This document shows positions 1 to 31,994 of a stretch of DNA of 64,000 bases, piece after piece (position 1 is the first letter of the stretch; the number at the start of each line of letters is the position of its first letter). The notes beneath the pieces were generated by a model. That model was not told where the DNA came from, did not search any database, and was given only the letters and a program-made list of their open reading frames with translations. Source of the DNA: Candidatus Latescibacterota bacterium (GTDB lineage Bacteria; Latescibacterota; UBA2968; UBA8231); the NCBI GenBank assembly GCA_965200315.1, contig OZ241362.1, forward strand, positions 3,040,001-3,104,000. The letters run 5' to 3'. A program made the position numbers and the translations under genes.

Positions 1-147
1 GCATTTCGATATGCGCGGAATCAATGGCGCGGTGGAGGACGACGAAACCGTCGTCGCGCAGGGCGGCGACGGCCTGTTGCAAGTGCTGCGGTTTTAGCTT
101 GCGTGCGCTGTGTTCGGCCGCGCTCAGTTCCAATTCGACCATAACAT

Positions 148-1137
148 TCAGGCGCAGGCGGGGTCTTCAAATGGCCAGCGATTGAAGGAGGGCAAGTTTT
201 TGTCGGACAGTTTTTCTCGTGCGTCGTACCACGATTGCGCCCAAGCCGCTGGGTCGCGCAGTTCGCATTGGGGATCTTTGCGGCTGCGGGCGACGAAGCC
301 GGGGAAGAGCGGCCGGCCAGTGGGCTGGCCGGTGGGGTTGTAGCGGAGGTCAAAGCTGATCCGCACCTGTTCGCTGACGTTGGGCAGCGACGAATGGCAG
401 GTCTGCCGGTGCATGAAGAGCACATCGCCGCGCTTGAGTTCGGCGGTGACGACGCGGTCGAGGGCTAGGTCTTGGTCGCGGATAAAGTGGCCGATGCCCT
501 TGAACAAGCAGTGGCGCAACAGCCCGTCGCGATGGCTGCCGGCTACTACTTCGATGCAGCCGTGCTCGCGAAAGGCGTTGGTCAGCGGCACCCACACGGT
601 GAGCATGTCGGTCTCGTCGGCCTCGGGCAGCACCACGCCATTGTCTTGGTGCCAAGGCGTGGCACCGACGGCGAAGCCAGCGATGCGGCCGTGATGGTCT
701 TTGGGAACATCGGACAAGAACTGCTCGGGTGGTTTGATGCGGATGTGCTGGACGGGGTTGGAGTAGATTTCCGGGCCGATGAGGTCTTCGATGATGTCGA
801 GGAGCTTTTTGTTGCGCAGCATCGCGAAGGTGGCCGGGCCAACGGCGATGGGCGAGTCCGGGCCGATGCCACCTTGGGGCAGCGAGATGTCGAAGTGCTG
901 GGCGTGAACTTGGCCGGTTTCGTTGTATATCTGGCAGAGGCGCGCATCAAAGCCGAGATCGGCGTACGTGGAGGCTATTTGCCCGGCGGCGAAAAGCTCG
1001 TTGGCGAGCTCGTCGAGGATTTCGTCGTATTCGGCCAAGACGGGATCGATGTCGGCGGTGGGGTCGAGGAGGGCTTCGACGAGGACGAAGCCGTGTTCGC
1101 GATAGTGGTCGAGTTGGGTAGGGGTTAGTTTAGGCAT
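148..1137 (-). CDS. Phytanoyl-CoA dioxygenase (PhyH) family protein
   Basis: LTPTQLDHYREHGFVLVE N-terminus, WHQD and distal His (HSS), RISFDLRY; start could be 1164. Confidence 0.9.
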   Translation of the reverse strand: MPKLTPTQLDHYREHGFVLVEALLDPTADIDPVLAEYDEILDELANELFAAGQIASTYADLGFDARLCQIYNETGQVHAQHFDISLPQGGIGPDSPIAVGPATFAMLRNKKLLDIIEDLIGPEIYSNPVQHIRIKPPEQFLSDVPKDHHGRIAGFAVGATPWHQDNGVVLPEADETDMLTVWVPLTNAFREHGCIEVVAGSHRDGLLRHCLFKGIGHFIRDQDLALDRVVTAELKRGDVLFMHRQTCHSSLPNVSEQVRISFDLRYNPTGQPTGRPLFPGFVARSRKDPQCELRDPAAWAQSWYDAREKLSDKNLPSFNRWPFEDPACA

Positions 1138-1571
1138 GGGTTGGATTCCTGTGTGATGCGTCATCGTGCTCTCGGCGGATACGATTTTGCCGTGGCTTCG
1201 TCCAGACACGCAATTCTAAAGGTGAAGGTGCTTGGCCGCAAGAGTTTCGCTCTGCATATTACAGACCGGTGTATTGCTGAACGGCTGGAGACCGGGATCT
1301 GGCATCGAAATCAGCGTGACGGTCCGCCGCTAGACCGAGATACTCCTGACTAGAGCGTCCTGCGCCTGGGGGGGGAAACGTTGTAACGCCAGCCCAACAG
1401 AGATTATTTTTTAAGGTGGTAAGATTACCGTATTCGTTCAAGAGACATGATAGGAGATGTCTGAGGTCTGGCAATGGGAGATCGCGGACTAGCAAAGCCT
1501 GAAGGCCAAAGTCGAATGCTTTTTGGGGCGAGTGACCATATTCTAACAATCGCGTTACCTTAAGAGTTGAG

Positions 1572-2789
1572 GTGAATATAGTGAGCGGTGGCTGTAGTAT
1601 TTGCGAATTAGATCTTTCGATCCTAAGGTCCACTACTCCCCCATCAGGTGACCCTTCTTGGCCGAAATTGAGAATCGCCGACCTATTTTCGGGTTGTGGC
1701 GGTCTATCGCTCGGTATACAGAGGGCCGTCCAAGAGTCGGGTTACTCCCTTGATGTTAGACTTGCAGTGGACTCAGACCAAATAGCACTGGACGTATATA
1801 GTACATCATTCCCGGCGGCAACAACAATTTGTAAGCCCATCGAACAAATATTGGACGGGGAGCTCGGTTCACCGCCCACCGTTGCTGAAGCTGAGTTGGC
1901 GCACCAAGTCGGGGAACTCGATATCTTACTAGGTGGACCCCCATGTCAGGGCCATTCAAATCTGAACAACCATTCAAGGCGCGATGACCCGAGAAACGGA
2001 TTGTACCTCCACATGGCAAGGGCGGCTGAAGTCCTATATCCATCGGCAATCATCTCTGAGAATGTTCCAACCGTCACTTTCGACGTTCGCAACGTTGTCT
2101 ACCAAACCATCGAGAGGCTCAAAGAGATTGGTTACGTTATCGGAGAGGGAGTGGTTGACCTGTCGAGTTTGGGTGTACCCCAAAAGCGTCACCGGCACGT
2201 AATAATTGCGGTGCTAGATTGCGATGTCGATCCCCAAGAACTAGTAAAAAGACTAGAATCGCCGATATGCGAACATGTTCCCAGAAGCATCCGATGGGCC
2301 ATGGAAGACCTAGAGGATGTGGCCAGATCCAACCTGTTCGACTCACCTTCTCAACCATATCCAGCAAACCAATCTAGGATCGACTGGCTATTTGAGAACG
2401 ACGAGATCAACTTGCCTAACGACTTGAGGCCTCCATGCCATAGATCGGACCATAGCTATACCGCAATGTACGGTAGGATGGTATGGGATCAGCCGGCGCA
2501 AACGGTCACTACGGGTTTCAATTGCATGGGTCAAGGCAGATATGTTCATCCTGCTTGCCGAAGAGTGATTACCCCTCACGAAGCTGCAAGGCTACAAATG
2601 CTTCCAGATTTTGTAGATTTTAGTTCTGTTACAGCGCGGAAACACCTAGCAAAGCTGATTGGAAATTCCGTGCCGCCGCCGCTGTCGTCTGCTATTGGCA
2701 GGATGGTAATTCCGTTTCTGAAAGACGTACCTCTGACTTGTTACGAATACGACATGTCAAGAAAAGGGGCAATTGACTACGGTGCCTGA
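1572..2789 (+). CDS. dcm: DNA (cytosine-5)-methyltransferase
   Basis: Motif I DLFSGCGG, IV GGPPCQ, VI ENV, VIII QKRHR, IX/X ITPHEAARLQ...IGNSVPP; start uncertain. Confidence 0.95.
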   Translation: MNIVSGGCSICELDLSILRSTTPPSGDPSWPKLRIADLFSGCGGLSLGIQRAVQESGYSLDVRLAVDSDQIALDVYSTSFPAATTICKPIEQILDGELGSPPTVAEAELAHQVGELDILLGGPPCQGHSNLNNHSRRDDPRNGLYLHMARAAEVLYPSAIISENVPTVTFDVRNVVYQTIERLKEIGYVIGEGVVDLSSLGVPQKRHRHVIIAVLDCDVDPQELVKRLESPICEHVPRSIRWAMEDLEDVARSNLFDSPSQPYPANQSRIDWLFENDEINLPNDLRPPCHRSDHSYTAMYGRMVWDQPAQTVTTGFNCMGQGRYVHPACRRVITPHEAARLQMLPDFVDFSSVTARKHLAKLIGNSVPPPLSSAIGRMVIPFLKDVPLTCYEYDMSRKGAIDYGA

Positions 2790-5022
2790 GCTTGGCTTAC
2801 AAAAAGTCCACTTCACCGTAGATTCAGAGCTACTTCGGGAGCTCGGTGAACGTCTAGTCGGCCGTCAGTACATTGCTCTTGCCGAGTTGGTGAAGAATAG
2901 CTACGATGCAGACGCCTCCAAAGTGGAGATCCGTATTCAGGACGACTGCATTGAAGTGTCCGACAACGGCCACGGCATGACTTATGAGGACTTTGAGGGC
3001 CGCTGGATGCGTGTAGGTTCGACTCATAAGGTTAAAGAAGAAACATCGCCGGAATTGCATCGACCACTGACCGGTTCAAAAGGAGTGGGGCGTCTGGCCG
3101 TCCAGTTTCTCGCTAGTGAGTTAGAGTTGACCTCTATCCCGAAGAAGACGCGAGTTCCAGAAGGTTCAATGCCCAGAGAGCTTTATGTGATGGTTGATTG
3201 GGACACGGCAGTTCAGGCGGGAGAGTTGACTCAAGCGACTGCCCTATACGACCTGAACAAACCTCAAGATACAGTTTTTCCTCTCGAAAGCCCACACGGC
3301 ACTACAGTAACACTGAAGAAACTCAAGCATGAATGGAGCCCCAAGGAATTTGAAGATCTTGCTAGAGAGATTTGGTTCCTCCAACCACCATTCCGCTCGT
3401 TGACTGGTGCTGCCAACAGAGAAGCAAGCGGTTTTGAAGTAGATTTGTCCGCACCACCGGAGGCGGTCGCTCTGTTCAATACCCAGATGTCCCGCACATT
3501 AGAATTGTATACTTCCCGTCTCGTCGGGAGACTCTTACCCCGTAACGGTTCGGGGAAAAGATCCGATAAGCGAAAAGCGCAACTATCATTGGAACTGGAG
3601 GGCCAACACACTCCGGCTTACGAATTCCAAGTTCCTGTCCGCGGCGATGATCGATATTTAATTGACAGCCTTGATTTTGAAATTCGCATATTTACGTTGC
3701 AGAACCGGCAACCTTATGGAATACCAGTACAACAAGCACGAGATTATATGCACGAATGGGGAGGTGTCCATATTTATGATGCTGGATTCCGAATCCCTTA
3801 TGCTGGGCCTGACTCGGACTGGTTAAGGCTTGAGATTGATCACTCACATCGCCTAACACAATCTCAGCTTTTACCGGACGAACTGAACGTCTCAATGGGA
3901 TTAAACCACTTGCCAACAAATTCGCGTGTTCTTGGTGTCGTAAACATCGACACTACCCACGAGGCGAGGGTAGCAGGTCAAAACAAACCTCCATCGAATC
4001 AATACTTACAGATCCAGGTATCCCGCGATCGCCTAGTCAGCAACGACGCATTTCGCCAACTCCAAGACACCGTCAGATTCGCCTTGGATTACTATGCAAC
4101 CCGTCTGGCAGTTCTGCGACTGAAAGAAAAGGTGACCATACAGAGTGTGGAAGTGCCTGAATCTCTTGTCGAAGGCGTATGGAATGTTCTGGAACAACAT
4201 GAAGACGAGGTACCCAAGGCAGTAGCGAACCAACTTAGGACGGAGCTAGAAAAGACTATAGACTCTATCCGCGAACAGTCTGAATGGACTAAGAGCCAGT
4301 CAGGGTTGCTTGGTGCCATGGCAACAGTCGGGGCAACATCTGTCGCGTTTGATCATCAATTCACCCAACAACTTAGCGTTTTGGAACATCACGCTGCCGC
4401 TCTGGACGATGCTATTAAGATAGACCCAGATTTGAAGAAATCTATTGGTTCCGTTTCCAACAGTATCAAGAAATGGATTCGAGACGCACGCGAGACACGT
4501 ATGATTTTCTCGCCAATCTCCGACGAACGAAATCGGACGACAGTTGCCCGTTTCAAGGCCAAACTCATAGTGGAAAGTATGGCCGGCAACCTGCGGGCCT
4601 TGCTACGTGGAGTGAAGGTAGAGGTTTCAGGTATCGATCGAGGCTTGTTGCTACCGGAGACTAGCTACCCGGTCTGGATGGCCATTTTCCACAACGTACT
4701 TATGAATGCTTCCAATGCAATGCTGGACAGTAATAGCAAGCGAATATCGGTGTCGTCCTTTGAGTCGGGCAAACGCCGAGGGATTCGAGTCCAAGACACG
4801 GGGGTGGGCATCGATCTGGATAAGGCGGAGGACCTATTTGAACCGCTCAAACGAGGCCTAGAGATTTCGCCGGAACGCCGGGCGTTGGGATATGGCGGTG
4901 CGGGACTGGGTTTAGCTATCGTTAGGATGTTAGCCACGGACTTGAAAGCGGACGTCCGCTTCATCGAACCAGTAGCACCATTCAACACATGCTTTGAGAT
5001 GGCATGGAGCGAGGACTTATGA
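2773..5022 (+). CDS. MORC/GHKL ATPase fused to C-terminal histidine kinase
   Basis: N-terminal GHKL motifs ELVKNSYDA, DNGHGM, GSKGVGR, GTTV; second kinase module with H-box AFDHQF, N-box NVLMNA, DTGVG, LFEP, GAGLGL. Confidence 0.88.
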   Translation: MTTVPELGLQKVHFTVDSELLRELGERLVGRQYIALAELVKNSYDADASKVEIRIQDDCIEVSDNGHGMTYEDFEGRWMRVGSTHKVKEETSPELHRPLTGSKGVGRLAVQFLASELELTSIPKKTRVPEGSMPRELYVMVDWDTAVQAGELTQATALYDLNKPQDTVFPLESPHGTTVTLKKLKHEWSPKEFEDLAREIWFLQPPFRSLTGAANREASGFEVDLSAPPEAVALFNTQMSRTLELYTSRLVGRLLPRNGSGKRSDKRKAQLSLELEGQHTPAYEFQVPVRGDDRYLIDSLDFEIRIFTLQNRQPYGIPVQQARDYMHEWGGVHIYDAGFRIPYAGPDSDWLRLEIDHSHRLTQSQLLPDELNVSMGLNHLPTNSRVLGVVNIDTTHEARVAGQNKPPSNQYLQIQVSRDRLVSNDAFRQLQDTVRFALDYYATRLAVLRLKEKVTIQSVEVPESLVEGVWNVLEQHEDEVPKAVANQLRTELEKTIDSIREQSEWTKSQSGLLGAMATVGATSVAFDHQFTQQLSVLEHHAAALDDAIKIDPDLKKSIGSVSNSIKKWIRDARETRMIFSPISDERNRTTVARFKAKLIVESMAGNLRALLRGVKVEVSGIDRGLLLPETSYPVWMAIFHNVLMNASNAMLDSNSKRISVSSFESGKRRGIRVQDTGVGIDLDKAEDLFEPLKRGLEISPERRALGYGGAGLGLAIVRMLATDLKADVRFIEPVAPFNTCFEMAWSEDL

Positions 5023-6260
5023 ATTCACTTAAGGTATTGGTCTACGAAGATCAATCCACGATTGCCAAAACTTGGGTAGATGGCATACGGAGCACTTATA
5101 GAGAGGCGGACGTGGAGGCTGTCGATACAAAGGATTTTCAGCCGCTGCTAGAGTTGGTGAATCGCCGGAGGACCGCATGGAGAGAGGATCTGAACGAAGC
5201 TTTTGAGACCGGGTCACACGATATAGATGAGGCGGACATAATCGTCTTGGACTACGATCTTCTCCACTATTCGGATGCCGCAGACATCACAGGGAGCAGG
5301 TTGGCCTATCTTCTCCGCTGTTTCTCTAAATGCGGGTTCATTATCGTTCTCAACGAATTCGGGAGAAATGTTTTCGAGCTGAGTCTAGGTAGTCCGCCTG
5401 AAGGCTTCGCCGACATACATCTCGGCGGCGAACAGATAGGGAATCCCGGTCTTTGGCAAGCTCCGTTCGACGGCTACCGACCATGGTATTGGCCGGTCGT
5501 CCCCAATGCTAGGGAGAACTTTGAGCTATGCGTAAAAGATGTTCGTGAACACCCTGACACACCGGTCCTTGGCTTCTTAGGTCTGGACCGTGTCATAGAC
5601 TGGATACCGCGGCGAGCACGGGACTTCTTGTTGGGTAAGCAAAAGATCGAAGAGGTCACATTCAAGAGCTTTGTCGAATCCGTCCACGGCGGTATTTCCG
5701 ACAAAGACACGCTTATTCCAGAGCAGATGGCACGGGTCACTGCGGCGAGGATAGTAACTCTGCTCAATTCGATCATCCTCCCAGAGCAGAGTATCCTTGT
5801 GGATGCGCCACATCTAGTATCCCGGTTTCCCAGCATCACCTTGGATCGACATCGACATAATGACGTCGAAGTGTGGAATCAACTGTGCAATCCAGTCGAT
5901 CTCGATATAGACAATTTATTGATCGAACGTTTGAAAAAGTACAAGTTCCAAAAACCGCATTGGCTCTGGAGACCAGCTTGGTATTGGCCCGAAATCAATA
6001 AAGATGAAAATATAGAAGAAGTGAAAGACCCATGGAAGGTCCCAGAAGTAGACTGGGTGTTTTGTGAAGACATTTCTCGGTTCGTACCCGTTGAAGTTGC
6101 TCAAGGCTTTAGAGCGCTCGTTTCGCCGCCGTTCATCAAGCGCTATGTGTTCAGAAGAGACTCACCGGACGCAAATGATCTCGTGAGCCAAATCGGGTCT
6201 AGAGGCCCACAGGATCCTTTCTCAGTCGAGTATGTCCCTCAAGCAATGTTTAGTTTGTAG
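5019..6260 (+). CDS. Receiver (REC)-domain protein with unknown C-terminal domain
   Basis: KVLVYED acidic pair, DIIVLDYDL phospho-Asp strand, ITGSRLA; ATGA overlap with kinase gene. Confidence 0.75.
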   Translation: MNSLKVLVYEDQSTIAKTWVDGIRSTYREADVEAVDTKDFQPLLELVNRRRTAWREDLNEAFETGSHDIDEADIIVLDYDLLHYSDAADITGSRLAYLLRCFSKCGFIIVLNEFGRNVFELSLGSPPEGFADIHLGGEQIGNPGLWQAPFDGYRPWYWPVVPNARENFELCVKDVREHPDTPVLGFLGLDRVIDWIPRRARDFLLGKQKIEEVTFKSFVESVHGGISDKDTLIPEQMARVTAARIVTLLNSIILPEQSILVDAPHLVSRFPSITLDRHRHNDVEVWNQLCNPVDLDIDNLLIERLKKYKFQKPHWLWRPAWYWPEINKDENIEEVKDPWKVPEVDWVFCEDISRFVPVEVAQGFRALVSPPFIKRYVFRRDSPDANDLVSQIGSRGPQDPFSVEYVPQAMFSL

Positions 6261-6273
6261 AAAGCCCTATGCC

Positions 6274-6918
6274 ATGCCCGTCGAACCGGCCGATAAGGCT
6301 ACTCGGGATGTCATCTTGGACATCTTGTTGATATTTTTGAAAGATTATAATGACGGCTCTTTTGCCAAACTTCTCTGCGAGGTCTATGACAGATATCAAT
6401 TGGGAGAGCTTGACGCCAATGGACTCAGATCGATGCTGAGTAAATGTCCAGACGTCGAAATGAGGGACCAGAATCAATTTCTACACCTCGAGCCTACGAA
6501 GAAGGGCATTCTACCCTTTGTAACTCTGCAAAGCTCAGACAAATGGGTCCATTTTAGGATTTACGCACTCCTCACGATCCTTGACGAAAATTGTAATCTT
6601 CAGTCCTTAGCGATCAGATTTGAGACCGACGAAGGAGATCTTAGTCTAGGAGATAGCCTTGGCTCACATGATTTCTGCCACGCCCAACTGTGCAATTGCA
6701 TCAATAAACGTGTTAAGGGAGTAACGCCTCAGTGGGTTCCAGATTCGCAGCCTTCAATTCCGCTGGACGCCGACAATCAAGTAAGTCTCGTGCTTTGTAT
6801 GCTGACGTCCCTCTACGGCGGTGCCGATGTGCGCAAAAAAATCAACGCAAGCGGTGCCGGGGAGATCCGGAAACACTTGGACAAGATTCGGGCATTGAAG
6901 GATCCCACGACCGACTAG
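6274..6918 (+). CDS. Hypothetical protein (RFETDE...HDFCHAQ motif)
   Basis: Open frame directly after the REC gene; alternative start 6232. Confidence 0.65.
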   Translation: MPVEPADKATRDVILDILLIFLKDYNDGSFAKLLCEVYDRYQLGELDANGLRSMLSKCPDVEMRDQNQFLHLEPTKKGILPFVTLQSSDKWVHFRIYALLTILDENCNLQSLAIRFETDEGDLSLGDSLGSHDFCHAQLCNCINKRVKGVTPQWVPDSQPSIPLDADNQVSLVLCMLTSLYGGADVRKKINASGAGEIRKHLDKIRALKDPTTD

Positions 6919-7103
6919 ATTTTGACAAAACGGCAAACGCGTGGCGTTCTTGGCATCTGATGATGCGAGTTCCATAAAATAGATCAATCAATACATGGAC
7001 CGCTTGACCGCCAGCACCGGGGCTTGTACACAGGCAAATTCAAAGATGCAGATAGAACGCTTTTTTGCTGATGTGTTGGACGCATAGGATGTAGTGTGCA
7101 TTA

Positions 7104-7421
7104 TTGCCGAATCCGTTGGCGGACCAACAGAGGCAGCCATTGAGGCACTTGTCCAGCTTTGCACTACGTAACAGATTCCCGATGTTGCGAGTTTCCAGAC
7201 GCGGGGGTACGCCGGTTGGCATCGTGCGTTTGGACTCATCCAGTCGAACGCGCTGCATCACCACGTACATCGCCATGCATCCCGACTGGAGAGGTCAGGA
7301 CATTGGGCGAACACTGGTTGAATTTATTCGCAACGATCTGAGCGATGCTGTCGGCGTATACAAATCCTGTGGATTTGACGTAGAACTTCTCGGCGAGAAG
7401 TCACCGTACCCCCGGCTATGA
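7104..7421 (+). pseudogene. GNAT acetyltransferase fragment
   Basis: IAMHPDWRGQDIGRTLV acetyl-CoA motif, AVGVYKSCGF; short and apparently internally deleted. Confidence 0.55.
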
Positions 7422-7473
7422 GCCATATAGCTCTTCCGAGCAAAACGCTCCTTTACCCTGATTGGAGTCCGCT

Positions 7474-8697
7474 ATGAAACTCAACCGCGACGAATTTCTG
7501 GAAACCGGCTACCTCATTGTCAAAGAAGCTGTGCCACGCGACAAACTTGAACGCGTCCGGCAGGCATACGAGACCCTCGTCAACCGCCAGCGCGAGACTT
7601 GGAAGGCCGAGTGCGCGGAAGGCGATCCACCCGGAGGCGTCTGGGAGACCGCACCGCAGCCTCGCCTGCAACTGTCAAGGGCGCCGCTCGTCAATCAGAT
7701 CGACCCGGAGACCGCGCCGGCGGTTGAGGTCTGGCTCGAGGAGAACATCCACGGAGTCAGCACAGAACTCCTCGGCATAGCGGACGGGGCCGTCACAGAG
7801 ATGATGATGATGTGCAATCCCGTCAGAGATCACGGCCCGGCCAAGTGGCACCGCGATCTCCATCCGATCGACACCGCGCCGCTCCAAGGCTATATCGACG
7901 ACATCCGCGAAGGAGGCCCGCGCTACGTCCAGTGGAACATCCCGCTCTACGACGATAGCGTCCTTTGGGTGGTGCCGGGCAGCCATCTGCGGCTGAACAC
8001 GCCCGCAGAGAACGCAGTGATGTTGGCAGATCCCCGCCGCCCGCTACCCAATGGTGTGCAGACCCATCTCGAAGCCGGCGACGGCGTCGTCTATATCCTC
8101 CCGATCCTCCACTGGGGCAGCAACTACAGCCCCAAGATGCGGCGAACCGTTCACGGCGGCTTCTCGACTTTTACGTCAATGGACGAGCTCTCGTTTACCG
8201 AACACATCTCCGCAGACGCGCAGGCGGCATTCACGCGCTGGAATGACCGCGGCGAAAAGATGAGGCAGCATACGGAATCGGCGCTGCGGGCCGTTCTCTC
8301 CGGAAATGGTGCCGCGTATCTGAGTGCCCTAGACGACCTCCATCCAGAGCGGGCCGAGAAAGGCAGGATTCTGTCAACGGTCTTTCTCTGCAAGGCCGCA
8401 CTGGCGATCCGACTGCACAAGGAGCCACCGCTTCAGGGAATCGCCGAGGACCTCCAAAGTCGCGTCTTGGGGAAGCACCCCATTACGCTCAACTGGGGGC
8501 CGAGCTTCGCCGATCGATTCTCCGCGGATGAGGCGCACTTGCTTTGGGATCGCTTCAGTTCGCTCGAGGCCCTGCTGCAAGCAGACGTGGAACACTTTGT
8601 GCCGGGCTTTCAGGCCGCCCCGATGAAGCACTGTTTCAACGAGATGCCGGCGGACTACGGTACGGCGGACTTCATCGCTAGTTGGAAGGCCGCGTGA
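7474..8697 (+). CDS. PhyH-family dioxygenase with C-terminal extension
   Basis: FLETGYLIVK, WHRD, VVPGSH, ILHWG. Confidence 0.85.
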   Translation: MKLNRDEFLETGYLIVKEAVPRDKLERVRQAYETLVNRQRETWKAECAEGDPPGGVWETAPQPRLQLSRAPLVNQIDPETAPAVEVWLEENIHGVSTELLGIADGAVTEMMMMCNPVRDHGPAKWHRDLHPIDTAPLQGYIDDIREGGPRYVQWNIPLYDDSVLWVVPGSHLRLNTPAENAVMLADPRRPLPNGVQTHLEAGDGVVYILPILHWGSNYSPKMRRTVHGGFSTFTSMDELSFTEHISADAQAAFTRWNDRGEKMRQHTESALRAVLSGNGAAYLSALDDLHPERAEKGRILSTVFLCKAALAIRLHKEPPLQGIAEDLQSRVLGKHPITLNWGPSFADRFSADEAHLLWDRFSSLEALLQADVEHFVPGFQAAPMKHCFNEMPADYGTADFIASWKAA

Positions 8698-10783: not shown

Positions 10784-10802
10784 TGGACGATAATGCGGCG
10801 AT

Positions 10803-10868
10803 GCGGCCCCGCAGCTACCCTTCAAAAGCAAGTACCCGCAGCGGAATGGCGTCGGTTTCGGCGGCCGG
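10803..10868. repeat. Left copy of 66-bp direct repeat (displaced 3' end of cyclase gene; att-like)
   Basis: Identical to 21357-21422; encodes PAAETDAIPLRVLAFEG* on the minus strand. Confidence 0.95.
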
Positions 10869-10934
10869 AAAGCAGATATGGCCCAAATCATTGCATCTAC
10901 TAACAAAGGTTTTTTATGATAAATCCTTATGAGA

Positions 10935-11284
10935 AGCGTAACGCTCTGCGCGTCCACGATCCCCGCCGCGGGCGTCGGCTTGCGGCCTTGCTGGGGGCGT
11001 TCCCGCCGGGTTAGCGCGTCAAGGATGCGTTTCCAAACCCCGGGTTGACGCCACCGATGAAAGTAGCTATATACCGTCTGCCAAGGGCCGAAAGACGCCG
11101 GGAGCCATCGGCCAAGGACCCCCGTTTTAGCCCGATATAAAAGGCCATGGATAACGACCCGCACTTCCCGGGGCGGACGACCCCGCCCCCCGCGACACCA
11201 ACGACACGAAGGAAGCAGGCGAGCAAGCACAGACTATTGCTCATCGGTCAAATCGGTTGCAGATGCCAGACCGGACGTACTCAT
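10935..11284 (-). pseudogene. IS5-family transposase remnant
   Basis: TDLTDEQ*(W to stop), GLLYRAKTG..WLPASFGPWQTVYSYFHRW, PTPAAGIVDAQSV, then truncated. Confidence 0.88.
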
Positions 11285-11382
11285 GTAACCCGCCGTTCAG
11301 GCTTTGTCGTGAAACCTAAAGGTCGCTAATGGGTACGTCCTTTCAACATAAAAACAACTAAAAGGGAATTTTAAAGACGCTT

Positions 11383-13599
11383 TTGAGAATTTCGAGAGAG
11401 AAGTTAAAGGCTGAGGCGGATGCCTTGCGTAAGCGGGCCGAGCCGGTTTGGGCGGCCCTTGAAGACCTTGAAGGCCGCGACCAGTGCCAGCGAGCATTCG
11501 AGAGTTCGCTGTTGCACTTTGAACAACAACGCCTTTGCATCACAGTGATGGGGGAGTTCAATACGGGCAAATCTACCCTCCTCAACACTTTTATCGGAGA
11601 AGAACTGCTTGCGACCGACCAGTTGGAATGTACGGCCGTGCCAACTTGGATTCGGTGGGCAGACAGCGAAAGCTTCGATGAGGATCGACAGGCCACCGTG
11701 ATTTATAAGAATGGCGATTCGGCTGCCATGCCCCGGTCTGAGGTCAGTGTCCATACTACTCTTGATCAGGACTCTTGGGAGGCCACTGAACGGGTCGAAA
11801 TTGTCTTGCAACCTGAAGAAAAACAACCAACGGGCGTTGTGCTCGTCGATACGCCTGGACTCAACGGCAATCCAGAGTTGGAAGCGCGAAGCATTCATCA
11901 GCTTAGCATGTCTCACGTGACCATTGTCGTGGTTCCCGTCGATGGGATTGGGCGGGAGAGCGATGTCGAGTTGATCAAAAAGGCGCGGTCTATTGCGGCC
12001 CGCGTCATAGTCGTCATCAATAAGTGCGATCAATACGCAAAGATAGGGGATGGATTCGAGAAGTATAAAGAAGAACTCCACAGACGAGTTCCTGATCTTC
12101 CCCGCGAGGAGATTTATACGCTCTCTGCCAAACGCGCTTTTGAAGGCAATGTCTACCGCGATGGCGAAGAGGAACTAGAGAACGAATTTTACCGCTTCTG
12201 CAACGAGCTGCGGAAGAATGCAGAGGAAGAGGTCCAGACCTCTGCACTCCGAAAGCGTCCGTTATTACTTTTGCGCGAGATTTGTAAGACAGAGATCGCT
12301 CACATTGAAAAACGTGATGCAGAGTGCGATGCGAGCGTTTTGAAGGAGCGGAAAGCAGCGGAAGCACATCTTAAAGAGGCCACTAAGAATCTAGAACGCT
12401 CGCTAGACAAAATTCTCCGATTGGCGCGAAAGGCTCTGATGGAGGAGTTGAGGCGCCTCCAACACTTTCTGACCGAAGAACAGCCTCGCATTGAACGCGA
12501 GATGGCGAGGTTTGTCGATGATGGATTAGATGATAAGTTGCTAGAGCGAGATGATCTAAGAGTGGCGCAAAAGATGGTGTCTGAACGGCTAAACGAAAGC
12601 ATGCAAAAATCTATTTTTGAGCGGCTCTCTCGGTTGTTGAGAGCGGTGACGAGTCGATTGATCTATGACCTTGAAAACCGGGGGAGGGTCTCTACGTTGG
12701 ATTTGCCAAAGGTGGCTTCTATCAAACTAGACAAGGCCCCGTTAAAAGAGCAAGCCGACAAAGCGAGTGAGGCGCTGAGCCGCCGAGAAGACGAGCTCGA
12801 TAGGCTGAAGCGGGAGGTCGCAAGGTGTGAGCGGGCTGTGCAAAGGCGAAAGGCAAAGGTCGAAACGCTTGAGAGACAGTCTGCTCAGTTAGAGAATTTA
12901 GAGAAGCAACGCAAAAAGGCTGTGAGGGATAGAACGCAACTCGGGCCGAAACCGGCTCCAAAAGTGGAACATTACACTGATTATGTGACGAGGGCCGTGG
13001 AGCGCGGCGGATTAGGATGGATTTTGGACATATTCCATACCAAGACCGAAGTGTTCCCGGTGACGCGGCAACGCAAAGATTATAGCCCCGTTAAAAAATG
13101 GGAACGCGAGTACGAGGCGGCGAATGAGAAGGTTTCCGATTTAGATAAGAAGATTAAGCCTCTCAAAGAGATGCGGACAGAGATGAGAAAGATCGAAGGC
13201 GAGATTCCAAAATTGCGACGAGAGGCTAACAATGCCAAAGCAAACTTGAGACGTGCAGAGGCGCGTCTGGCAGAGGAACGAGAGAGGTATCGTCAGTCGG
13301 GAATGAAAACCCGACAAGCACAGCTTAAGGCAGGTGCCCGAAGGGAGTTGGAAAGTCTCTTTGATTCGCTTCCCGATAGACTTGAACGGGAGGCCGAGCA
13401 AATGCTGGAGGGGATTTCACGAGGTTTCCGTACGCGCTTCAAACAGGCTGCGGACCAGCAGCGCAAGGTGCTCGCAGACAAGATGGCGCGGAAGAAGAAA
13501 GAGGCAGACGAAGCAGATGCAGATGATGAACGAGTGAAGCGCGAAGCTGTTCGTAAAACGCTTGCGGAGGCATTGGAGACTTTTCGCAGCGAAAACTGA
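11383..13599 (+). CDS. Dynamin-like GTPase 1
   Basis: G1 GEFNTGKS, G2 TAVPT, G3 DTPG, G4 NKCD, long coiled-coil stalk. Confidence 0.92.
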   Translation: MRISREKLKAEADALRKRAEPVWAALEDLEGRDQCQRAFESSLLHFEQQRLCITVMGEFNTGKSTLLNTFIGEELLATDQLECTAVPTWIRWADSESFDEDRQATVIYKNGDSAAMPRSEVSVHTTLDQDSWEATERVEIVLQPEEKQPTGVVLVDTPGLNGNPELEARSIHQLSMSHVTIVVVPVDGIGRESDVELIKKARSIAARVIVVINKCDQYAKIGDGFEKYKEELHRRVPDLPREEIYTLSAKRAFEGNVYRDGEEELENEFYRFCNELRKNAEEEVQTSALRKRPLLLLREICKTEIAHIEKRDAECDASVLKERKAAEAHLKEATKNLERSLDKILRLARKALMEELRRLQHFLTEEQPRIEREMARFVDDGLDDKLLERDDLRVAQKMVSERLNESMQKSIFERLSRLLRAVTSRLIYDLENRGRVSTLDLPKVASIKLDKAPLKEQADKASEALSRREDELDRLKREVARCERAVQRRKAKVETLERQSAQLENLEKQRKKAVRDRTQLGPKPAPKVEHYTDYVTRAVERGGLGWILDIFHTKTEVFPVTRQRKDYSPVKKWEREYEAANEKVSDLDKKIKPLKEMRTEMRKIEGEIPKLRREANNAKANLRRAEARLAEERERYRQSGMKTRQAQLKAGARRELESLFDSLPDRLEREAEQMLEGISRGFRTRFKQAADQQRKVLADKMARKKKEADEADADDERVKREAVRKTLAEALETFRSEN

Positions 13600-13618
13600 A
13601 AACTAAGGAGTAAAGAAC

Positions 13619-15979
13619 ATGAGTGTCAAAAATCGGTTTGCGGAGTTGCGCGACGAGGTGGTTGACCTATTGAAGCGATCTGCCAAAGTCATGGAGAATG
13701 TCGTCCCGCACTTGGGCGATGAAAGCGCGAGTAGCCTTCCACAGACTTTCCAAGAACGGGCTAACACCGTTCAGAATGAGGAGTTCGTAGTCGTGGTCGT
13801 CGGCGAGATGAATCGCGGAAAATCCATGCTCCTCAACGCAATGATGCACAAGCAATTACTCACGATGGACGTGCTTGAGTGTACAGCAACAGTCAATTTT
13901 CTTCGGTATCCAAAGACGAAAGAAGGTCAGTCGTCCGACCATGTCGAGGTGCATTTTACCAATGGAAGTCCATCAGAAAAAGTGCCGGTTGATAAACTCG
14001 CAGATTATACCTCGCGGCTCTCTGCCCTCGGCAGCGAAAAAGTGGCGGATTTGGTGAATCATGTAGATGCCTTTGTTAAATCTCCCTTTCTTGAGGACAA
14101 TGTACTGCTCGTAGATACTCCGGGGACGAATACAACTACTCACAACCACATTCGGATTACCAATGATCAGATTGATCGCAGTAATGCGGCCATTTTTCTT
14201 TTTGGTGCAGAAACGCAAGTGACCCAGTCTGATCGGCAGTTTCTCGAGGGTGTAGAAGAGGCTGTCGCCCGCCTATTTTTTGTGGTGAACAAAATTGACA
14301 GTGTTGACGAGAGTCAGATCAGCCGGGTTTTGGAGCGCGTGGAAAGTAGTATTCGGGATGTCGTGGATCAGTCCAAGATGCGCCGAGTCTTTGGCGTGTC
14401 TGGTGCGAAGGCACTGCTTGGGCGTGCTGGGTATGTGAAAACTCCGATTTTGGCAGAGAGTGAGCGGAGCAGGTTGGAGGATCGGCAGTTTCGCGAGACT
14501 TTGATCGAAGAGTCCGGGATCAGTGCCTTTGAGGCTGACCTCGAACGGTATCTTTTTCGTGGCGGCAAGGGTTATGATCTCTTACATAGCCCGCTCTCGT
14601 TCGTTCAAAGCGAGACCGCTAAGCTCATAGAGAAGTTGCATCGGCAGATTGAGGTTCTCGACGACACTTTTGATCTAGCCGATCTCGAATTGAAAGTAGA
14701 AAAGATGGAACGCGTTGTGGAAGATCGAAAACGCGAAATCGAAGGCATGAAGGGTGAACTTTCTGAGGAGTTTTCGCAGACATTATCGCAGGCAAAAGAT
14801 GCCTTTGAGGAGCGATGCAAGTTGGCTGAAGAAGCTCTCAAGGACGAGATCAATGCCTACGACTCGCATGAAGCGCTTAAAGACAACTGGGGCGCGGGTG
14901 CCCAATTAGCCAATTTACCGGGCAGAAATTTCGCGGCACTCGGAAGGCAGGCGGGGAAGTTGTTGAATGACGCCGTAGGTAGTGTGCTACGCAAGCAGAC
15001 GCGAGAGATTCGGAGGCAGGTTCGGGGCGAGCTGGGAGAGATCGCTTTGGAGCTTCCCGAAGTACCCGACATGGCGTTTCAGGTGCCGGAACCGAAGATC
15101 GATGAAGCTGAAGCAGAGAAAGTCAAAGAACTCGAAAGAGAAATTGAAGACCGTGATCGGCAGTTAGAAAAGTTGGATGAGGCACAGGCAGGATCGAATG
15201 AACGTCGCTACATGGACCTAAAGGAGGAAAAGAAGCGATTGAACGAGGAATATCTCGCAGAACTCCAAAGTCACGGCAGCCGTCCCGCGGTGAGAACTAG
15301 AACGGTTATAGAAGAAAAGGTTGAAGATGTCAGAGGAATTGGAGGGGTCTTCATGTTCCTTTTGAGGGGAAAAAAGCGGGTACAAGTACCAAGAGAAGTT
15401 GATGATGACCGAGCCCAAAAACATTACGACAAAAGCAAAGGGCGCATTGAGGACCAGTACCAAGAGAAGTTAGCTGAACTCAACCGCCGAACAAATGAAG
15501 CAGAGGTAAAGTACGACGCCGAGTTGTCGGAGAGGCGCAAAGCCGAGGTACTGGAAAAACTCAATCGAAATCGGAAACAGGCATTGGAACGGGCAGAAAG
15601 CCAGTATCGGGAAAATGTGGCGAAAGCTCGTCAACGCGCTGTGGAGTCAACCAAAGGACGATTGATTAGCACCTTTCAACGCGCTGTGGAAACTCTAGAA
15701 ACCGCTGTGGAACATTGTGTCGGTCAGACCGAAAAGATGGCCACGGATTTCATTGAGAACGCAATAGCGGAGCTCGATGCCACTTTGAATGGCCACAATC
15801 AGGAGTTGGCAAAGCTCAAATCTTTGAAGGACACAAAAGAAAGCGAGCGGGATACCAAAAAGGAAGGAATTACGGAGGCACTAGAAGAACTGAAGACCTT
15901 GCAAGAGGGGGCGTCGAGCTTAGAGAAAGAGCACGAGGCTTTTGTTGCGGAATCTGGCGAGGAGGTAACAAATGAGTGA
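13619..15979 (+). CDS. Dynamin-like GTPase 2
   Basis: G1 GEMNRGKS, G2 TATVN, G3 DTPG, G4 NKID, SGISAFEADL; RBS AAGGAG. Confidence 0.93.
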   Translation: MSVKNRFAELRDEVVDLLKRSAKVMENVVPHLGDESASSLPQTFQERANTVQNEEFVVVVVGEMNRGKSMLLNAMMHKQLLTMDVLECTATVNFLRYPKTKEGQSSDHVEVHFTNGSPSEKVPVDKLADYTSRLSALGSEKVADLVNHVDAFVKSPFLEDNVLLVDTPGTNTTTHNHIRITNDQIDRSNAAIFLFGAETQVTQSDRQFLEGVEEAVARLFFVVNKIDSVDESQISRVLERVESSIRDVVDQSKMRRVFGVSGAKALLGRAGYVKTPILAESERSRLEDRQFRETLIEESGISAFEADLERYLFRGGKGYDLLHSPLSFVQSETAKLIEKLHRQIEVLDDTFDLADLELKVEKMERVVEDRKREIEGMKGELSEEFSQTLSQAKDAFEERCKLAEEALKDEINAYDSHEALKDNWGAGAQLANLPGRNFAALGRQAGKLLNDAVGSVLRKQTREIRRQVRGELGEIALELPEVPDMAFQVPEPKIDEAEAEKVKELEREIEDRDRQLEKLDEAQAGSNERRYMDLKEEKKRLNEEYLAELQSHGSRPAVRTRTVIEEKVEDVRGIGGVFMFLLRGKKRVQVPREVDDDRAQKHYDKSKGRIEDQYQEKLAELNRRTNEAEVKYDAELSERRKAEVLEKLNRNRKQALERAESQYRENVAKARQRAVESTKGRLISTFQRAVETLETAVEHCVGQTEKMATDFIENAIAELDATLNGHNQELAKLKSLKDTKESERDTKKEGITEALEELKTLQEGASSLEKEHEAFVAESGEEVTNE

Positions 15980-19309: not shown

Positions 19310-19929
19310 CGATGTGGGCAAAAAATAATTCCGAATTTCTCGGGTTCCTCACCGGCGTTGACGACCGCGATGCCTTCTCAAAAACCCAGCGTTTCTCTGT
19401 CGTTAGGTCCCCCAATGTAAGTGACACAGCCGAGATAGAAAAGCCGCCAGAGGCTCAAAACGACGTTCTGGCACTGGTGTATGAAATTTTGGGGGTTTTG
19501 AGGAAGGAAGGAACGGGAAAAAGACTATCTGCGAGAGACTTACTGAATGTTCTCCAAGTAGATAGCCTCTTCTCGAAGGCGACTCGGTCGATGGTCAAGG
19601 TCGCCAGGTCTGACTCGCCGTTGCAAGGAGCGGTTCAGGGGCTTGTTACAGAAGCCTATATCGAACGGATCCGAAATGAATTTGTCGGCGAATTGGCGCG
19701 TTCCCTCAAAGTGTTTCGAGAACGCCTCGCAAAAGACCGTGCAAAGGATGATTGGCGGGAGGAGTTGGATCGCGGCGTCGTACTTTACGATGTCTTTCGG
19801 CCGAATCTCTGGGAGCTTTATCAGGAACTTTGGGGCAAATGGCGGGATGATATGGCGCGTATCGACGCCTTGGCTACACACGTACAGCGCATTGACGAGA
19901 CATTAAAGAGAGAGGAGAGAGACTCGTGA
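19306..19929 (+). CDS. Hypothetical helical protein
   Basis: GTGA overlap with upstream stop (or ATG at 19312); overlaps the next start. Confidence 0.7.
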   Translation: MTMWAKNNSEFLGFLTGVDDRDAFSKTQRFSVVRSPNVSDTAEIEKPPEAQNDVLALVYEILGVLRKEGTGKRLSARDLLNVLQVDSLFSKATRSMVKVARSDSPLQGAVQGLVTEAYIERIRNEFVGELARSLKVFRERLAKDRAKDDWREELDRGVVLYDVFRPNLWELYQELWGKWRDDMARIDALATHVQRIDETLKREERDS

Positions 19930-21340: not shown

Positions 21341-21356
21341 ACGACGGACGCGCTGA

Positions 21357-30684: not shown

Positions 30685-30763
30685 TGGCCAGTGATCTGTG
30701 GCCAGCCCCAACCCCACACCGCGGGGGACTGGCCACCGGCCACGAACCACTGCTGGAGGTTAT

Positions 30764-31992: not shown

Positions 31993-31994
31993 CG

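Follow-up and report, generated by a model that had tools for sequence, protein, structure and literature searches.

The gene cassette and its flanks

The window, a stretch of 64,000 nucleotides from a Latescibacterota genome, harbors four + strand genes, here G1 to G4 (longest ORFs 1572-2789, 2773-5022, 5004-6260, and 6232-6918, together spanning window 1572-6918). They encode a C5 methylase, a GHKL-kinase fusion, a receiver-like protein, and a fourth protein. This architecture was found as the first-pass annotation had described it, and ORF analysis, GC content, and Pfam likewise bear out its picture of closely packed, lower-GC genes between PhyH genes: the left flanking gene (148-1209, - strand) matches PhyH PF05721 at E 2.2e-21 and the right one (7462-8697, + strand) at E 1e-5. 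Database orthologues support the starts of G2, G3, and G4 used in Table 1. With these starts, G1 and G2 overlap by 8 nt, G2 and G3 overlap by 4 nt, and 13 nt separate G3 from G4, and G1-G4 thus form a tight operon. Terminal repeats of the low-GC island were looked for and not found. Together with the left flank, the island is collinear with a related locus (L001; 85% nucleotide identity over window 135-6966).

Table 1. Coordinates of the cassette and its features in the window.
Feature	Position	Strand	Remarks
Low-GC island with cassette	~1250..7250 (approximate limits)		GC 0.46-0.53 inside vs 0.58-0.65 on both sides
G1, C5 cytosine DNA methyltransferase	1572..2789	+	405 aa from longest ORF; PF00145, TIGR00675
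G2, soluble GHKL-ATPase + DHp + CA histidine-kinase fusion	2782..5022	+	746 aa; longest ORF from 2773
G2 N-terminal Bergerat-fold ATPase core (HATPase_c_3)	2872..3144	+	residues 34-124, 749-aa numbering; PF13589
G2 H-box His codon	4354..4356	+	H528 (749-aa) = H525 (746-aa numbering), in AFDHQF
G2 C-terminal kinase catalytic (CA) domain	4684..4962	+	PF02518
G3, receiver-like + C-terminal domain	5019..6260	+	413 aa; longest ORF from 5004; ATG overlaps G2 stop by 4 nt
G3 receiver-like (beta-alpha)5 domain	5019..5468	+	~residues 1-150; candidate acceptor Asp78, codon 5250-5252
G3 C-terminal domain, candidate output/effector	5469..6257	+	~260 aa; conserved residues; pLDDT mostly 72-96
G4, conserved protein, candidate effector/partner	6274..6918	+	214 aa; longest ORF from 6232

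Domains and conserved residues of the four proteins

Judged from its motifs, G1 is an intact C5 methylase: I, IV, VI, VIII, and X are all there (FSGCGG, PPCQ, ENV, QKRHR, and GNSVP), with the PPCQ cysteine at Cys125 (codon 1944-1946). The protein matches PF00145 in Pfam (E 3.9e-41) and TIGR00675 (dcm) in NCBIfam, at 123 bits above the cut-off of 100.65, and its top PADLOC model is DruM2 (PDLC00033, E 1.4e-106). Searches of the cassette with PADLOC, Pfam, and NCBIfam brought up no nuclease; a tblastn search of the whole window for Vsr gave a best E of 0.35, and a purpose-built Vsr HMM had no match in it, so that the absence of both, already noted on first inspection, holds.

G2 combines PF13589 (residues 34-124, E 4.1e-23), a DHp with H-box, and PF02518 (residues 638-730, E 3e-19), which confirms the claim of two GHKL domains in one protein with a kinase. 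Homologues number 2123 at E<=1e-3; among the 120 of them listed, 119 carry both PF13589 and PF02518 and one PF13589 alone, and PF19191 was found neither in these nor in G2. An alignment of 18 sequences, with homologues as distant as 24% identity, shows no variation in either GHKL site, in the H-box His, or in the N, G1, and G2 boxes (746-aa numbering: E35, N39, D42, D61xGxG65, G98-K100-G101-G103, and T174 in the N-terminal ATPase; N638, N642, D672xGxG676, and G706xGLGL711 in the CA domain). The H-box His aligns with that of AdeS (AIAHELRTP, 7cch) and occupies what we take to be the phospho-acceptor position, after HisKA H-boxes. Among solved kinases, the family profile aligns with DHp+CA cores at E values as low as 9.7e-14, and hhalign pairs the CA domain with the window's own hybrid kinase at 96.9% probability; on these alignments, the C-terminus is a true histidine-kinase core.

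The same kind of GHKL domain as in the G2 N-terminus heads the type II restriction enzymes BbrUII/HgiDII (NF050001), which pair with C5 methylases. G2 residues 14-198 correspond to the N-terminal 181 of the 659 positions of that model (E 1e-25; 90 bits, below the cut-off of 550), whereas the rest of G2 is kinase core and does not correspond to the C-terminal part of those enzymes; two PADLOC REase_II models also match the N-terminus. The domain further resembles MutL/PMS2 in sequence, a similarity limited to motifs I-II (profile positions 25-84). For its earlier label, MORC-type, no specific support emerged: it is a MutL/PMS2-like HATPase_c_3 domain that, by sequence, is better named paraMORC/MutL-like GHKL.

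G3 has 393 homologues, and a wider set holds 666 representatives of 50%-identity clusters (E<=1e-3). It matches nothing in Pfam (E<=10), PADLOC, NCBIfam, or PHROGs, failing PF00072 and PF19192 alike; the latter is also absent from the 44 remote representatives scanned among 150 listed. The AlphaFold2 model (pLDDT 80.5, pTM 0.84) yields no Foldseek match to the PDB at E<=0.001. The top sub-threshold matches are mostly receiver domains (ARR1 at 6e-3, further RcsB, NarL, DesR, CheY3, ArcA, TrrA, and DrrB; probability up to 0.99), and hhalign against a canonical receiver in the window aligns 27 columns only (E 0.0019, probability 14%). An acidic pocket is formed by E/D10-D11 at the end of strand 1 and D78 at the end of strand 3, a triad without variation in 36 of 36 sequences. 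G3 retains three of the five canonical receiver residues, while Thr/Ser is replaced by an invariant N112 at the end of strand 4 and Lys by a near-invariant H134 inside strand 5, one residue past the inferred Lys place. The name receiver protein given at first therefore stands for the acidic triad and a weak receiver fold, but not for a Pfam match or the Thr/Lys pair, and the domain could be a pseudo-receiver. Past it, the C-terminal domain matches nothing in the PDB (Foldseek) or the atlas. Its invariant residues comprise D262, H265, R269, H314, C349, E350, S353, R375, and six Trp, and the motifs VDAPH and VFCE(D/N)xS are retained in a 27%-identical homologue on a Mycolicibacterium plasmid.

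G4 was confidently modeled by AlphaFold2 (pLDDT 88.3, pTM 0.88), and Foldseek found no fold match (best PDB E 0.14; best BFVD E 9e-3, probability 0.10). Invariant residues include R115, E117, T118, E120, H132, D133, H136, and Q138; the motifs are RFETDEG and GSHDFCHAQLC, with C140 invariant and C135 nearly so. Pfam, PADLOC, NCBIfam, PHROGs, PDB sequence search, Foldseek, and the atlas revealed no catalytic fold or nuclease in G3 or G4. Their position and conserved polar residues make the G3 C-terminal domain and G4 candidate effectors.

Related loci and closest known systems

Synteny was assessed in 21 related loci. By record title, their genomes span many phyla and belong to Latescibacterota, several classes of Chloroflexota, Gemmatimonadetes, Poribacteria, Verrucomicrobiae, and Proteobacteria, with one Heliobacteriaceae genome and one 'Candidatus Aldehydirespiratoraceae' genome in addition. 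Everywhere G2 lies directly 5' of G3 and G4 comes after G3, once behind a 1.5-kb insertion and once as a marginal match; the G4 HMM match adjoining G3 reaches E<=7e-12 in 20 loci and 2.8e-4 in the remaining one (L020). The G2-G3-G4 order is thus syntenic elsewhere, and by PADLOC and Pfam (no PF19191/PF19192) the locus does not completely match a characterised system. G4, at first called an orphan, indeed bears no family name, but it has 180 homologues and the same place in all 21 loci. A C5 methylase is nearby in every locus, yet only in 12 is it orthologous to G1 (62-89% identity) and directly upstream; a non-orthologous C5 methylase replaces it in the other nine. With the methylase swapped so often, a G2-G4 core tied to a single recognition site is ruled out, and the interchangeability suggests that the core reads a generic state rather than one fixed sequence.

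Vsr is encoded in 11 of the 21 loci (E<=1e-30; six confirmed by Pfam), often directly 3' of G4, and a strong match is missing from the other ten as from the window. Its presence was taken as a sign of 5-methylcytosine in host DNA. Where the methylase is apart from the core (L002, L009, L015, L017, and L018), Vsr adjoins the methylase, which suggests that it serves the methylase rather than G2-G4. The neighborhoods contain HEPN, AbiU2, PIN, SMODS, GmrSD_N, and type I restriction-modification genes as well as integrases, recombinases, and transposases. G2 or G3 is split in two loci (L010 and L021), and the cassette hence decays in some genomes. In a cousin on a Hymenobacter plasmid, an MBL-fold hydrolase is encoded 3' of the kinase.

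Clusters of this kind are already in print. In a purely computational study, Bellieny-Rabelo, Pretorius and Moleleki (2021; PMC8011034) reported 644 regions in which HEF_HK/Response_reg_2 clusters accompany C5 methylases. As far as the accessible text goes, these share with the window the order of methylase, soluble HATPase_c_3 + DHp + HATPase_c kinase, and receiver-like protein without other known domain, as well as the frequency of Vsr, a patchy phyletic distribution, and a suggested paraMORC descent (PMC8011034). In contrast, G2 lacks PF19191 and G3 lacks PF19192; Response_reg_2 conserves the Thr and Lys for which G3 has Asn and His; and no conserved G4-like gene appears in the accessible description, where Vsr directly follows the receiver-like gene, whereas here G4 stands between the two (PMC8011034). 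A kinase on a Paraburkholderia plasmid, which aligns with G2 at 24% identity across 95% of its length, shows a sub-threshold HEF_HK match (E 0.0079), so that a distant relationship between the families is probable. Detocs likewise uses a kinase-to-receiver phosphorelay with enzymatic output for phage defence, as proposed here, but is not known to include a methylase or a GHKL sensor, and its effector is a nucleosidase; PADLOC gave no Detocs match for G2-G4.

An experimentally validated anti-phage system, Ambrosia (AbrR-AbrA-AbrB-AbrC-AbrD) of Pseudomonas aeruginosa, also groups genes for a methylase, a kinase/HATPase protein, and a REC protein with a fourth gene for an effector (2025 preprint, 10.1101/2025.09.30.679545). 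According to the accessible part of the preprint, defence needs all five proteins and the receiver Asp D60, the working model has the relay control transcription rather than an enzyme directly, and phage gained no protection from methylation by the Ambrosia methylase, which speaks against a simple unmethylated-DNA trigger, of the sort that the first-pass annotation had suggested, in that cousin. Compared by description, Ambrosia includes an XRE regulator, its methylase is of the N6-adenine type, its REC protein has a winged helix, and an HNH nuclease is encoded downstream of the kinase, whereas the window has neither XRE nor HNH but a C5 methylase, a receiver-like domain with 260 further residues, and G4. 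The first-pass annotation had underestimated this prior art, both the 644 regions and the phage-defence-validated cousin. The paraMORC/MORC GHKL ATPases that Iyer, Abhiman and Aravind (2008; PMC2292703) described from restriction-modification systems share with G2 the N-terminal position, intact motifs, proximity to cytosine methylases and Vsr, and lateral mobility; the accessible text links them to S5 domains, nucleases, TIR domains, or helicases and does not contain the word 'receiver'. With the kind itself known, new here are its output modules, the G3 C-terminal domain and G4.

Proposed phosphorelay and competing explanations

We hold with about even confidence that the locus is a horizontally mobile, restriction-modification-linked defence cassette whose kinase relays from His to Asp to a new effector pair. 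The parts of a relay are present in G2 and G3, as seen in sequence and fold. G1 would constitutively methylate host cytosines. G2, which is soluble and presumably acts as a dimer like kinases of its class, would engage DNA or an infection cue through the MutL/paraMORC-like ATPase in the sensor place, the generic state read by the core being, for example, methylated versus unmethylated cytosine or an infection signal. Its kinase core would then phosphorylate His528, and the phosphoryl group would pass to Asp78 of G3. In the least-supported step, phospho-G3 may switch on its own C-terminal domain, probably with G4, and attack DNA.

Counted in favor of defence were the intact catalytic parts, operon structure, synteny, methylase/Vsr association, defence and mobile context, the restriction-enzyme link of the G2 N-terminus, the variable output gene in relatives, and the Ambrosia precedent. 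Counted against it were the lack of a nuclease fold in G3/G4, the receiver without Thr/Lys, the decayed loci, and, from what is accessible of the preprint, transcription control and unprotective methylation in Ambrosia. With no Vsr in the window, constitutive methylation is putative for the source genome.

Transcriptional control, in which infection-sensing G2 phosphorylates a DNA-binding G3 that induces the cassette and G4 or the methylase is the sole effector, appears unlikely. It has its precedent in the winged-helix REC protein of Ambrosia, where cluster reporters are infection-induced and D60A abolishes defence (10.1101/2025.09.30.679545, accessible part). The receiver-plus-DNA-binding regulators ARR1, RcsB, and NarL among the top Foldseek matches and the largely helical residues 161-252 of G3 fit it too, but the long NarL/ARR1 alignments (rmsd 12-13 A) are uninformative past the receiver part, and Pfam (E<=10) finds no HTH or winged helix. 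For a DNA-binding output, the C-terminal domain is big (~260 aa) and, with its many invariant Trp, Cys, His, Asp, and Glu, rather like an enzyme, and a non-exhaustive search of small ORFs found no XRE/C-protein gene in the island, where ORF 1259-1633 (-) matches no family.

It is improbable that G2-G3-G4 form an ATP-dependent multi-subunit restriction enzyme cutting DNA without G1 methylation, with kinase and receiver features as relics devoid of phosphotransfer, and just as doubtful that ATP binding and hydrolysis drive its assembly. The BbrUII/HgiDII and REase_II matches and the missing Thr and Lys of G3 agree with such an enzyme, as does the proposal, in the accessible text of Iyer et al. 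(2008; PMC2292703), that paraMORCs work as mechanical ATPases in restriction-modification. However, an H-box His, CA ATP-lid boxes, and acidic triad invariant to 24-27% identity are hard to explain without phosphoryl chemistry, and non-orthologous methylases in nine of 21 loci misfit a nuclease of fixed cognate site.

MutL stimulates Vsr in E. coli, and T:G mismatches, the Vsr substrate concerned, arise from 5-methylcytosine deamination. A non-defence accessory in which MutL-like G2, G3, and G4 aid Vsr-type T:G repair or monitor methylation is nonetheless very improbable: the MutL/PMS2 likeness and the Vsr genes, a parallel also drawn in the accessible text of Iyer et al. (2008; PMC2292703), are offset by the short span of that likeness, the loci without strong Vsr match, the attachment of Vsr to the methylase instead of the core, and neighborhoods made up of defence islands and mobile elements.

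Layout and setting of the cassette

Four closely packed, low-GC genes lie between two PhyH-family genes, as described in the first-pass annotation. They encode a C5 cytosine DNA methylase (G1), a fusion of a GHKL ATPase and a putative histidine kinase (G2), a protein with a receiver-like domain and a C-terminal domain of unknown fold (G3), and a smaller protein (G4). The start of G2 and the stop of G1 overlap by 8 nt, the ATG of G3 and the stop of G2 by 4 nt, and a gap of 13 nt separates G3 from G4. The GC content amounts to 0.46-0.53 over about 1250-7250 and to 0.58-0.65 in both flanks. Terminal repeats were not found at the island, only short matches such as chance often produces. Neither promoter-like sites (5 vs 6.5) nor terminator-like sites (5 vs 6.1) were more frequent than in shuffled sequence.

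Features of the 64-kb window, with the evidence for each
Feature	Position	Strand	Evidence
PhyH-family gene, left flank	148-1209	-	Pfam
G1 ORF	1572-2789	+	longest ORF
G2 ORF	2773-5022	+	exact-match database protein starts 2782, 746 aa
G3 ORF	5004-6260	+	exact-match database protein starts 5019, 413 aa
G4 ORF	6232-6918	+	exact-match database protein starts 6274, 214 aa
Segment without counterpart in L001	6967-7443		comparison with L001
105-aa ORF	7104-7421	+	match only to C-terminal part of GNAT acetyltransferases (PF13508, E 4.3e-8)
PhyH-family gene, right flank	7462-8697	+	Pfam
Possible second variable island	10794-21362		~10.5 kb vs ~1.2 kb replacement in L001
Three tandem dynamin-family GTPases	11383-18362
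Four ORFs without family	18359-21340
Hen1 and Pnkp-ligase pair	26140-29682	+	PF12623, E 2.8e-108; PF16542, E 1.7e-80
PhyH-family dioxygenase gene	30698-31567
Canonical receiver, then hybrid kinase	31621-34937	+	receiver PF00072, E 4.2e-18; kinase with HisKA, HATPase_c, two receiver domains, Hpt
Sulfatase	36268-37752
PhyH-family dioxygenase gene	40969-41943
748-aa protein	58730-60976	-	weak N6_Mtase match, E 9.8e-7
Uma2-family putative restriction endonuclease	62003-62590	-	E 4e-30
Sulfatase	62672-63961

Another Latescibacterota genome (L001) has the island together with its flanks in the window at 85% nucleotide identity, so the insertion is older than the split of these genomes. The 105-aa ORF related to GNAT acetyltransferases, at the right border of the island, is probably a gene fragment. 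In L001, a 302-nt copy (11954-12255, 91% identity) of a part of the left PhyH gene (window 879-1180) lies directly 3' of G4, and an aldo-keto reductase absent from the window comes next; this copy may be a trace of island insertion or rearrangement.

G1 matches PF00145 (E 3.9e-41) and, above the cut-off, TIGR00675, and motifs I, IV (PPCQ, Cys125), VI, VIII, and X are all present. As for a type II restriction-modification system, the methyltransferase with complete motifs is there, and a cognate endonuclease of a recognised nuclease family was found at the cassette neither by Pfam, PADLOC, NCBIfam, and PHROGs nor by fold search, in agreement with the earlier statement that no recognisable restriction nuclease is present. 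The best PADLOC model for G1 is DruM2, a Druantia-type methylase (E 1.4e-106). In PADLOC, G1 matches methylase models only and G2-G4 match no Dru model; a Druantia type II assignment was dropped because the DruE helicase and partner genes are absent and no other Dru component stands beside G1.

The kinase, the receiver-like protein, and the fourth protein

Two GHKL domains, as the first-pass annotation had stated, were found in G2: HATPase_c_3 at residues 34-124 (E 4.1e-23) and HATPase_c (PF02518) at residues 638-730 (E 3e-19). Conservation was followed in an alignment of 18 sequences, down to 24% identity, made up of 10 orthologues among the 120 listed, six translated sequences from distant loci, and two from plasmids. 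Therein, the N-terminal Bergerat motifs (E35, N39, D42, DxGxG, GxKGxG, T174) are invariant, as are the N, G1, and G2 boxes of the CA domain (N638/N642, D672xGxG, G706xGLGL). The H-box histidine (H525; H528 in ORF numbering) is found in 18/18 sequences, and its surroundings, AFDHQF (AFDH528QF), align with AIAHELRTP of AdeS. A profile of the G2 family recovered solved DHp and CA cores from the PDB down to E 9.7e-14 (profile positions 455-736), and hhalign related the kinase core to the canonical hybrid kinase of the window with a probability of 96.9%; this kinase and the receiver preceding it served as internal comparators for G2 and G3. Both hallmarks of a histidine kinase, the DHp with its H-box and the CA domain with its three boxes, are present, and the earlier assignment of a kinase with an H-box histidine is borne out.

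The N-terminal ATPase had been called MORC-type. The GHKL domain does carry intact ATP-binding motifs of the kind expected for the MORC family (PF13589, motifs I-IV invariant), but in the PDB the N-terminus matches MutL/PMS2 alone (profile positions 25-84), and the 60 PDB matches listed for the G2 profile include no MORC chain. Taken together, the GHKL, H-box, kinase-core, and N-terminal matches predict that G2 is a soluble kinase with a paraMORC/MutL-like ATPase in the position of the sensor.

G3 had been described as a receiver protein, a designation that holds only in part. No Pfam family was found for it at E<=10, PF00072 and PF19192 included, nor a PADLOC, NCBIfam, or PHROGs family, and searches of the PDB by sequence and profile (profile, E<=10) returned nothing. 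The AlphaFold2 model (pLDDT 80.5, pTM 0.84) shows alternating strands and helices across the N-terminal residues 5-146. In Foldseek, receiver domains (ARR1, RcsB, NarL, DesR, CheY3, ArcA, TrrA, DrrB) make up most of its best matches, all of them weak (E 6e-3 to 7e-2, target TM 0.35-0.53, none at E<=0.001). With positions assigned from the secondary structure of the model rather than from superposition, E/D10-D11 lie at the end of strand 1 and D78 at the end of strand 3, all invariant. Of the receiver active-site quintet, these acidic residues and D78 are kept, while the expected Thr/Ser and Lys are replaced by Asn112 (invariant) and His134 (90% or more). Receiver profiles do not recognise G3, and hhalign aligned it with the canonical receiver of the window (31621-31992) over 27 columns only, at a probability of 14%. 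The acidic residues thus stand, and a receiver-like fold is weakly suggested; the profile match and the canonical Thr and Lys are lacking. The remaining ~260 residues are modelled confidently and contain many invariant polar and aromatic residues; for this C-terminal domain, Foldseek gave no fold match and the protein atlas no usable one. The motifs VDAPH and VFCE(D/N)xS are kept in a plasmid homologue with 27% identity.

G4 was previously called an orphan. Indeed no family was found in any library searched (Pfam at E<=10, PADLOC, NCBIfam, PHROGs), but the protein has 180 homologues and recurs downstream of G3 in related loci. It is modelled confidently (pLDDT 88.3, pTM 0.88), and fold searches gave nothing usable in the PDB (best E 0.14) or in BFVD (best E 9e-3, probability 0.10). 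The four PDB matches by sequence or profile are each at E>=0.55, and the protein atlas yields unnamed clusters only (0.90). A weak atlas lead to DUF2290 (0.82) had no HMMER support and was rejected because Pfam gives no family at E<=10. The invariant positions are concentrated in the motifs RFETDEG and GSHDFCHAQLC. Weak matches of the G4 profile to downstream genes of two distant loci (L020, E 1.7e-4; L023, E 6e-4), in both of which RF..EG, H-x3-H-x-Q, and P-x-IP elements occur, suggest that these genes share the G4 motifs. The prediction of a G3-G4 complex scored 0.00 against a mark of 0.32, which counts neither for nor against binding.

Linkage in other genomes and on plasmids

Scanning one genome per species yielded 63 pattern matches, 21 of which encode a relative of G3; 20 of these 21 loci stem from metagenome-assembled genomes. 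G2 is directly upstream of G3 in 21/21 loci (in pieces in L010 and L021), and a G4 HMM match follows G3 in all of them (20 at E<=7e-12, L020 at 2.8e-4), with a 1.5-kb insertion separating G3 and G4 in L019. The synteny search proposed with the first-pass annotation therefore found G2, G3, and G4 together throughout. A C5 methylase is encoded nearby in 21/21 loci (tblastn). In 12 of them it is orthologous (62-89% identity) and directly upstream; the methylases of the other nine are 22-40% identical and placed upstream or downstream on either strand, with PF00145 confirmed in the eight non-orthologous ones that were scanned.

The hosts comprise Latescibacterota, several Chloroflexota classes, Gemmatimonadetes, Poribacteria, Verrucomicrobiae, Gamma- and Betaproteobacteria, a Heliobacteriaceae genome, and a 'Candidatus Aldehydirespiratoraceae' genome. 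Among the neighbouring genes are HEPN, AbiU2, PIN, SMODS, GmrSD_N, and type I restriction-modification subunits as well as integrases, serine recombinases, and transposases. In L020 (Undibacterium), the C5 methylase is separated from the kinase gene by HEPN (MAE_28990-type) and GmrSD_N genes (5545-7454, minus strand). L010 (7753-10001) has its G2 gene in two pieces, and L021 (7736-11180) has G2 in three and G3 in two; these copies look pseudogenised or affected by assembly frameshifts. A PhyH gene is also found near the cassette in L005 (Gemmatimonadetes).

G3 has 393 homologues at E<=1e-3, and a profile built from 36 of its homologues retrieves 666 cluster representatives (50% identity), of which 442 are at E<=1e-30. 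With these and 2123 G2 homologues, the cassette is a large separate branch. The copies fetched come mostly from uncultured genomes of many phyla, and in the closest group G2-G4 are 53-89% identical across phyla.

More distant relatives reside on plasmids. A Mycolicibacterium plasmid (L023) carries G2-G3-G4 next to two methylases, one dcm and one of the Eco57I type. On a Paraburkholderia plasmid (L022), an HTH regulator, an adenine methylase, and a kinase with 24% identity to G2 precede two proteins without assignment (355 aa and 225 aa), and a Hymenobacter plasmid (L025) encodes an N6 methylase, a kinase, a 227-aa protein without assignment, and an MBL-fold hydrolase. The layout is thus modular, with variation in the gene that follows the pair of kinase and receiver-like protein. 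The G3 profile aligned with the downstream proteins of L022 and L025 over the first strand and helix only (hhalign, E 0.051 and 0.12).

Relation to described systems and proposed working

ParaMORCs adjoining cytosine methylases and Vsr were defined by Iyer et al. (2008; PMC2292703), and the word 'receiver' is absent from that text. According to Bellieny-Rabelo et al. (2021; PMC8011034), kinases with HATPase_c_3, HEF_HK (PF19191), and HATPase_c adjoin Response_reg_2 (PF19192) proteins, with a linkage of 91.6% in 644 regions; C5 methylases stand upstream, and Vsr or HNH in the vicinity. The cassette resembles these clusters in its HATPase_c_3, DHp, and HATPase_c arrangement, the adjacent receiver-like gene, and the C5 methylase upstream. 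It differs from them in the pattern of receiver-like residues and in having no match to either defining domain. PF19191 was found neither in G2 at E<=10, nor among the domains precomputed for the 120 listed orthologues, nor in eight distant homologues (L014, L016-L020, L023); the model is present in the library, as the L022 kinase gives a sub-threshold HEF_HK match (E 0.0079). PF19192 was detected neither in G3, nor in 44 of 150 listed remote representatives, nor in the locus homologues, a search without a positive control: none of the plasmid loci scanned (L022, L025, L026) carries it. With no such comparator, G3 is related to Response_reg_2 through architecture only.

Methylase-coupled kinase relays are a recently recognised defence layout, known from a single computational survey (2021) and a single system with experimental validation, Ambrosia (2025 preprint; 10.1101/2025.09.30.679545). 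Ambrosia is a five-gene cousin that defends Pseudomonas against phages; besides an XRE regulator and an HNH nuclease it encodes an N6 methylase, a kinase/HATPase, and a REC protein carrying a winged helix. Defence depends on each of the five proteins and on the receiver Asp, infection induces expression, methylation by AbrA gives the phage no protection, and the mechanism is still a working model. By gene content, only the kinase/HATPase and the receiver-like part correspond in the cassette. Its methylase is of the C5 instead of the N6 type, XRE, winged helix, and HNH are absent (Pfam), and its conserved fourth gene codes for a protein of unknown fold. As these differences add to the missing PF19191 and PF19192 and the other receiver pattern, the cassette is, judged from sequence, the same kind of system and a member of neither described family. 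No complete match of the locus to a characterised system was found, and the literature searched on HEF_HK/Response_reg_2, paraMORCs and HATPase_c_3 (2021 onwards), and defence two-component systems contained no publication that deals with the families of G3 or G4.

It is proposed that the cassette serves defence: G1 would mark the host DNA, the GHKL-kinase G2 would sense the state of DNA or an infection, a phosphoryl group would pass from His528 to Asp78 of G3, and the C-terminal domain of G3, with G4, would act on DNA. The chances of this sequence of events are considered even. The parts of the cassette, their conservation, and their linkage are observed; signal, transfer, and output we infer. 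The reading in the first-pass annotation, in which a clamp may detect unmethylated DNA and signal by His-to-Asp transfer to an effector, is thereby supported in part.

Three other explanations are less probable. The relay could exert transcriptional control as in Ambrosia, with which the kinase and receiver-like pair is shared; the winged helix and the XRE regulator have no counterpart in the cassette, and such control is considered rather unlikely. G2 could also belong to a restriction complex and retain its kinase features as relics. Residues 14-198 resemble the N-terminus of the BbrUII/HgiDII model NF050001 (E 1e-25, profile positions 3-181/659), and the N-terminus also matches two PADLOC REase_II models. 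G2 does not reach a full-length NF050001 match (90.4 bits vs a cut-off of 550), its H-box and CA boxes are invariant, and this explanation appears distinctly doubtful. Finally, an accessory role in Vsr/MutL-like repair would fit the MutL/PMS2 likeness and the Vsr matches at E<=1e-30 in 11/21 loci (in one case at a distance of 8 kb from the cassette; weak matches in four more loci), and is very improbable for a cassette with no Vsr in its window, where the absence noted earlier was upheld by searches of the whole window, including an HMM built here from six Pfam-verified Vsr sequences.

More tentatively, and on the unlikely side, the C-terminal domain of G3 and G4 may form a new pair of effectors that target DNA and whose folds lack any solved relative, turned on directly and post-translationally by His-to-Asp phosphotransfer from a DNA-engaging GHKL clamp. 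A phosphorelay would then read self and non-self as set by whichever C5 methylase accompanies the core, neither via transcription nor by direct recognition of nuclease sites, and would represent phosphorylation-gated restriction in a family of hundreds of sequence clusters. Both output proteins have confident models and no known fold. If they prove to be effectors, new enzyme families would be added, and the four genes would offer a compact setting in which to ask if a GHKL clamp is able to turn a readout of DNA methylation into a phosphoryl signal, a question that bears on the reading of epigenetic marks by eukaryotic MORCs.

Elsewhere in the window, the segment that holds the dynamin-family GTPases may be a second variable island, and the Hen1 and Pnkp-ligase pair is a bacterial RNA repair cassette. 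The 748-aa protein and the Uma2-family protein are further DNA-modification-related genes. Four PhyH-family dioxygenase genes, the two flanking ones included, and two sulfatases occur within the 64 kb.
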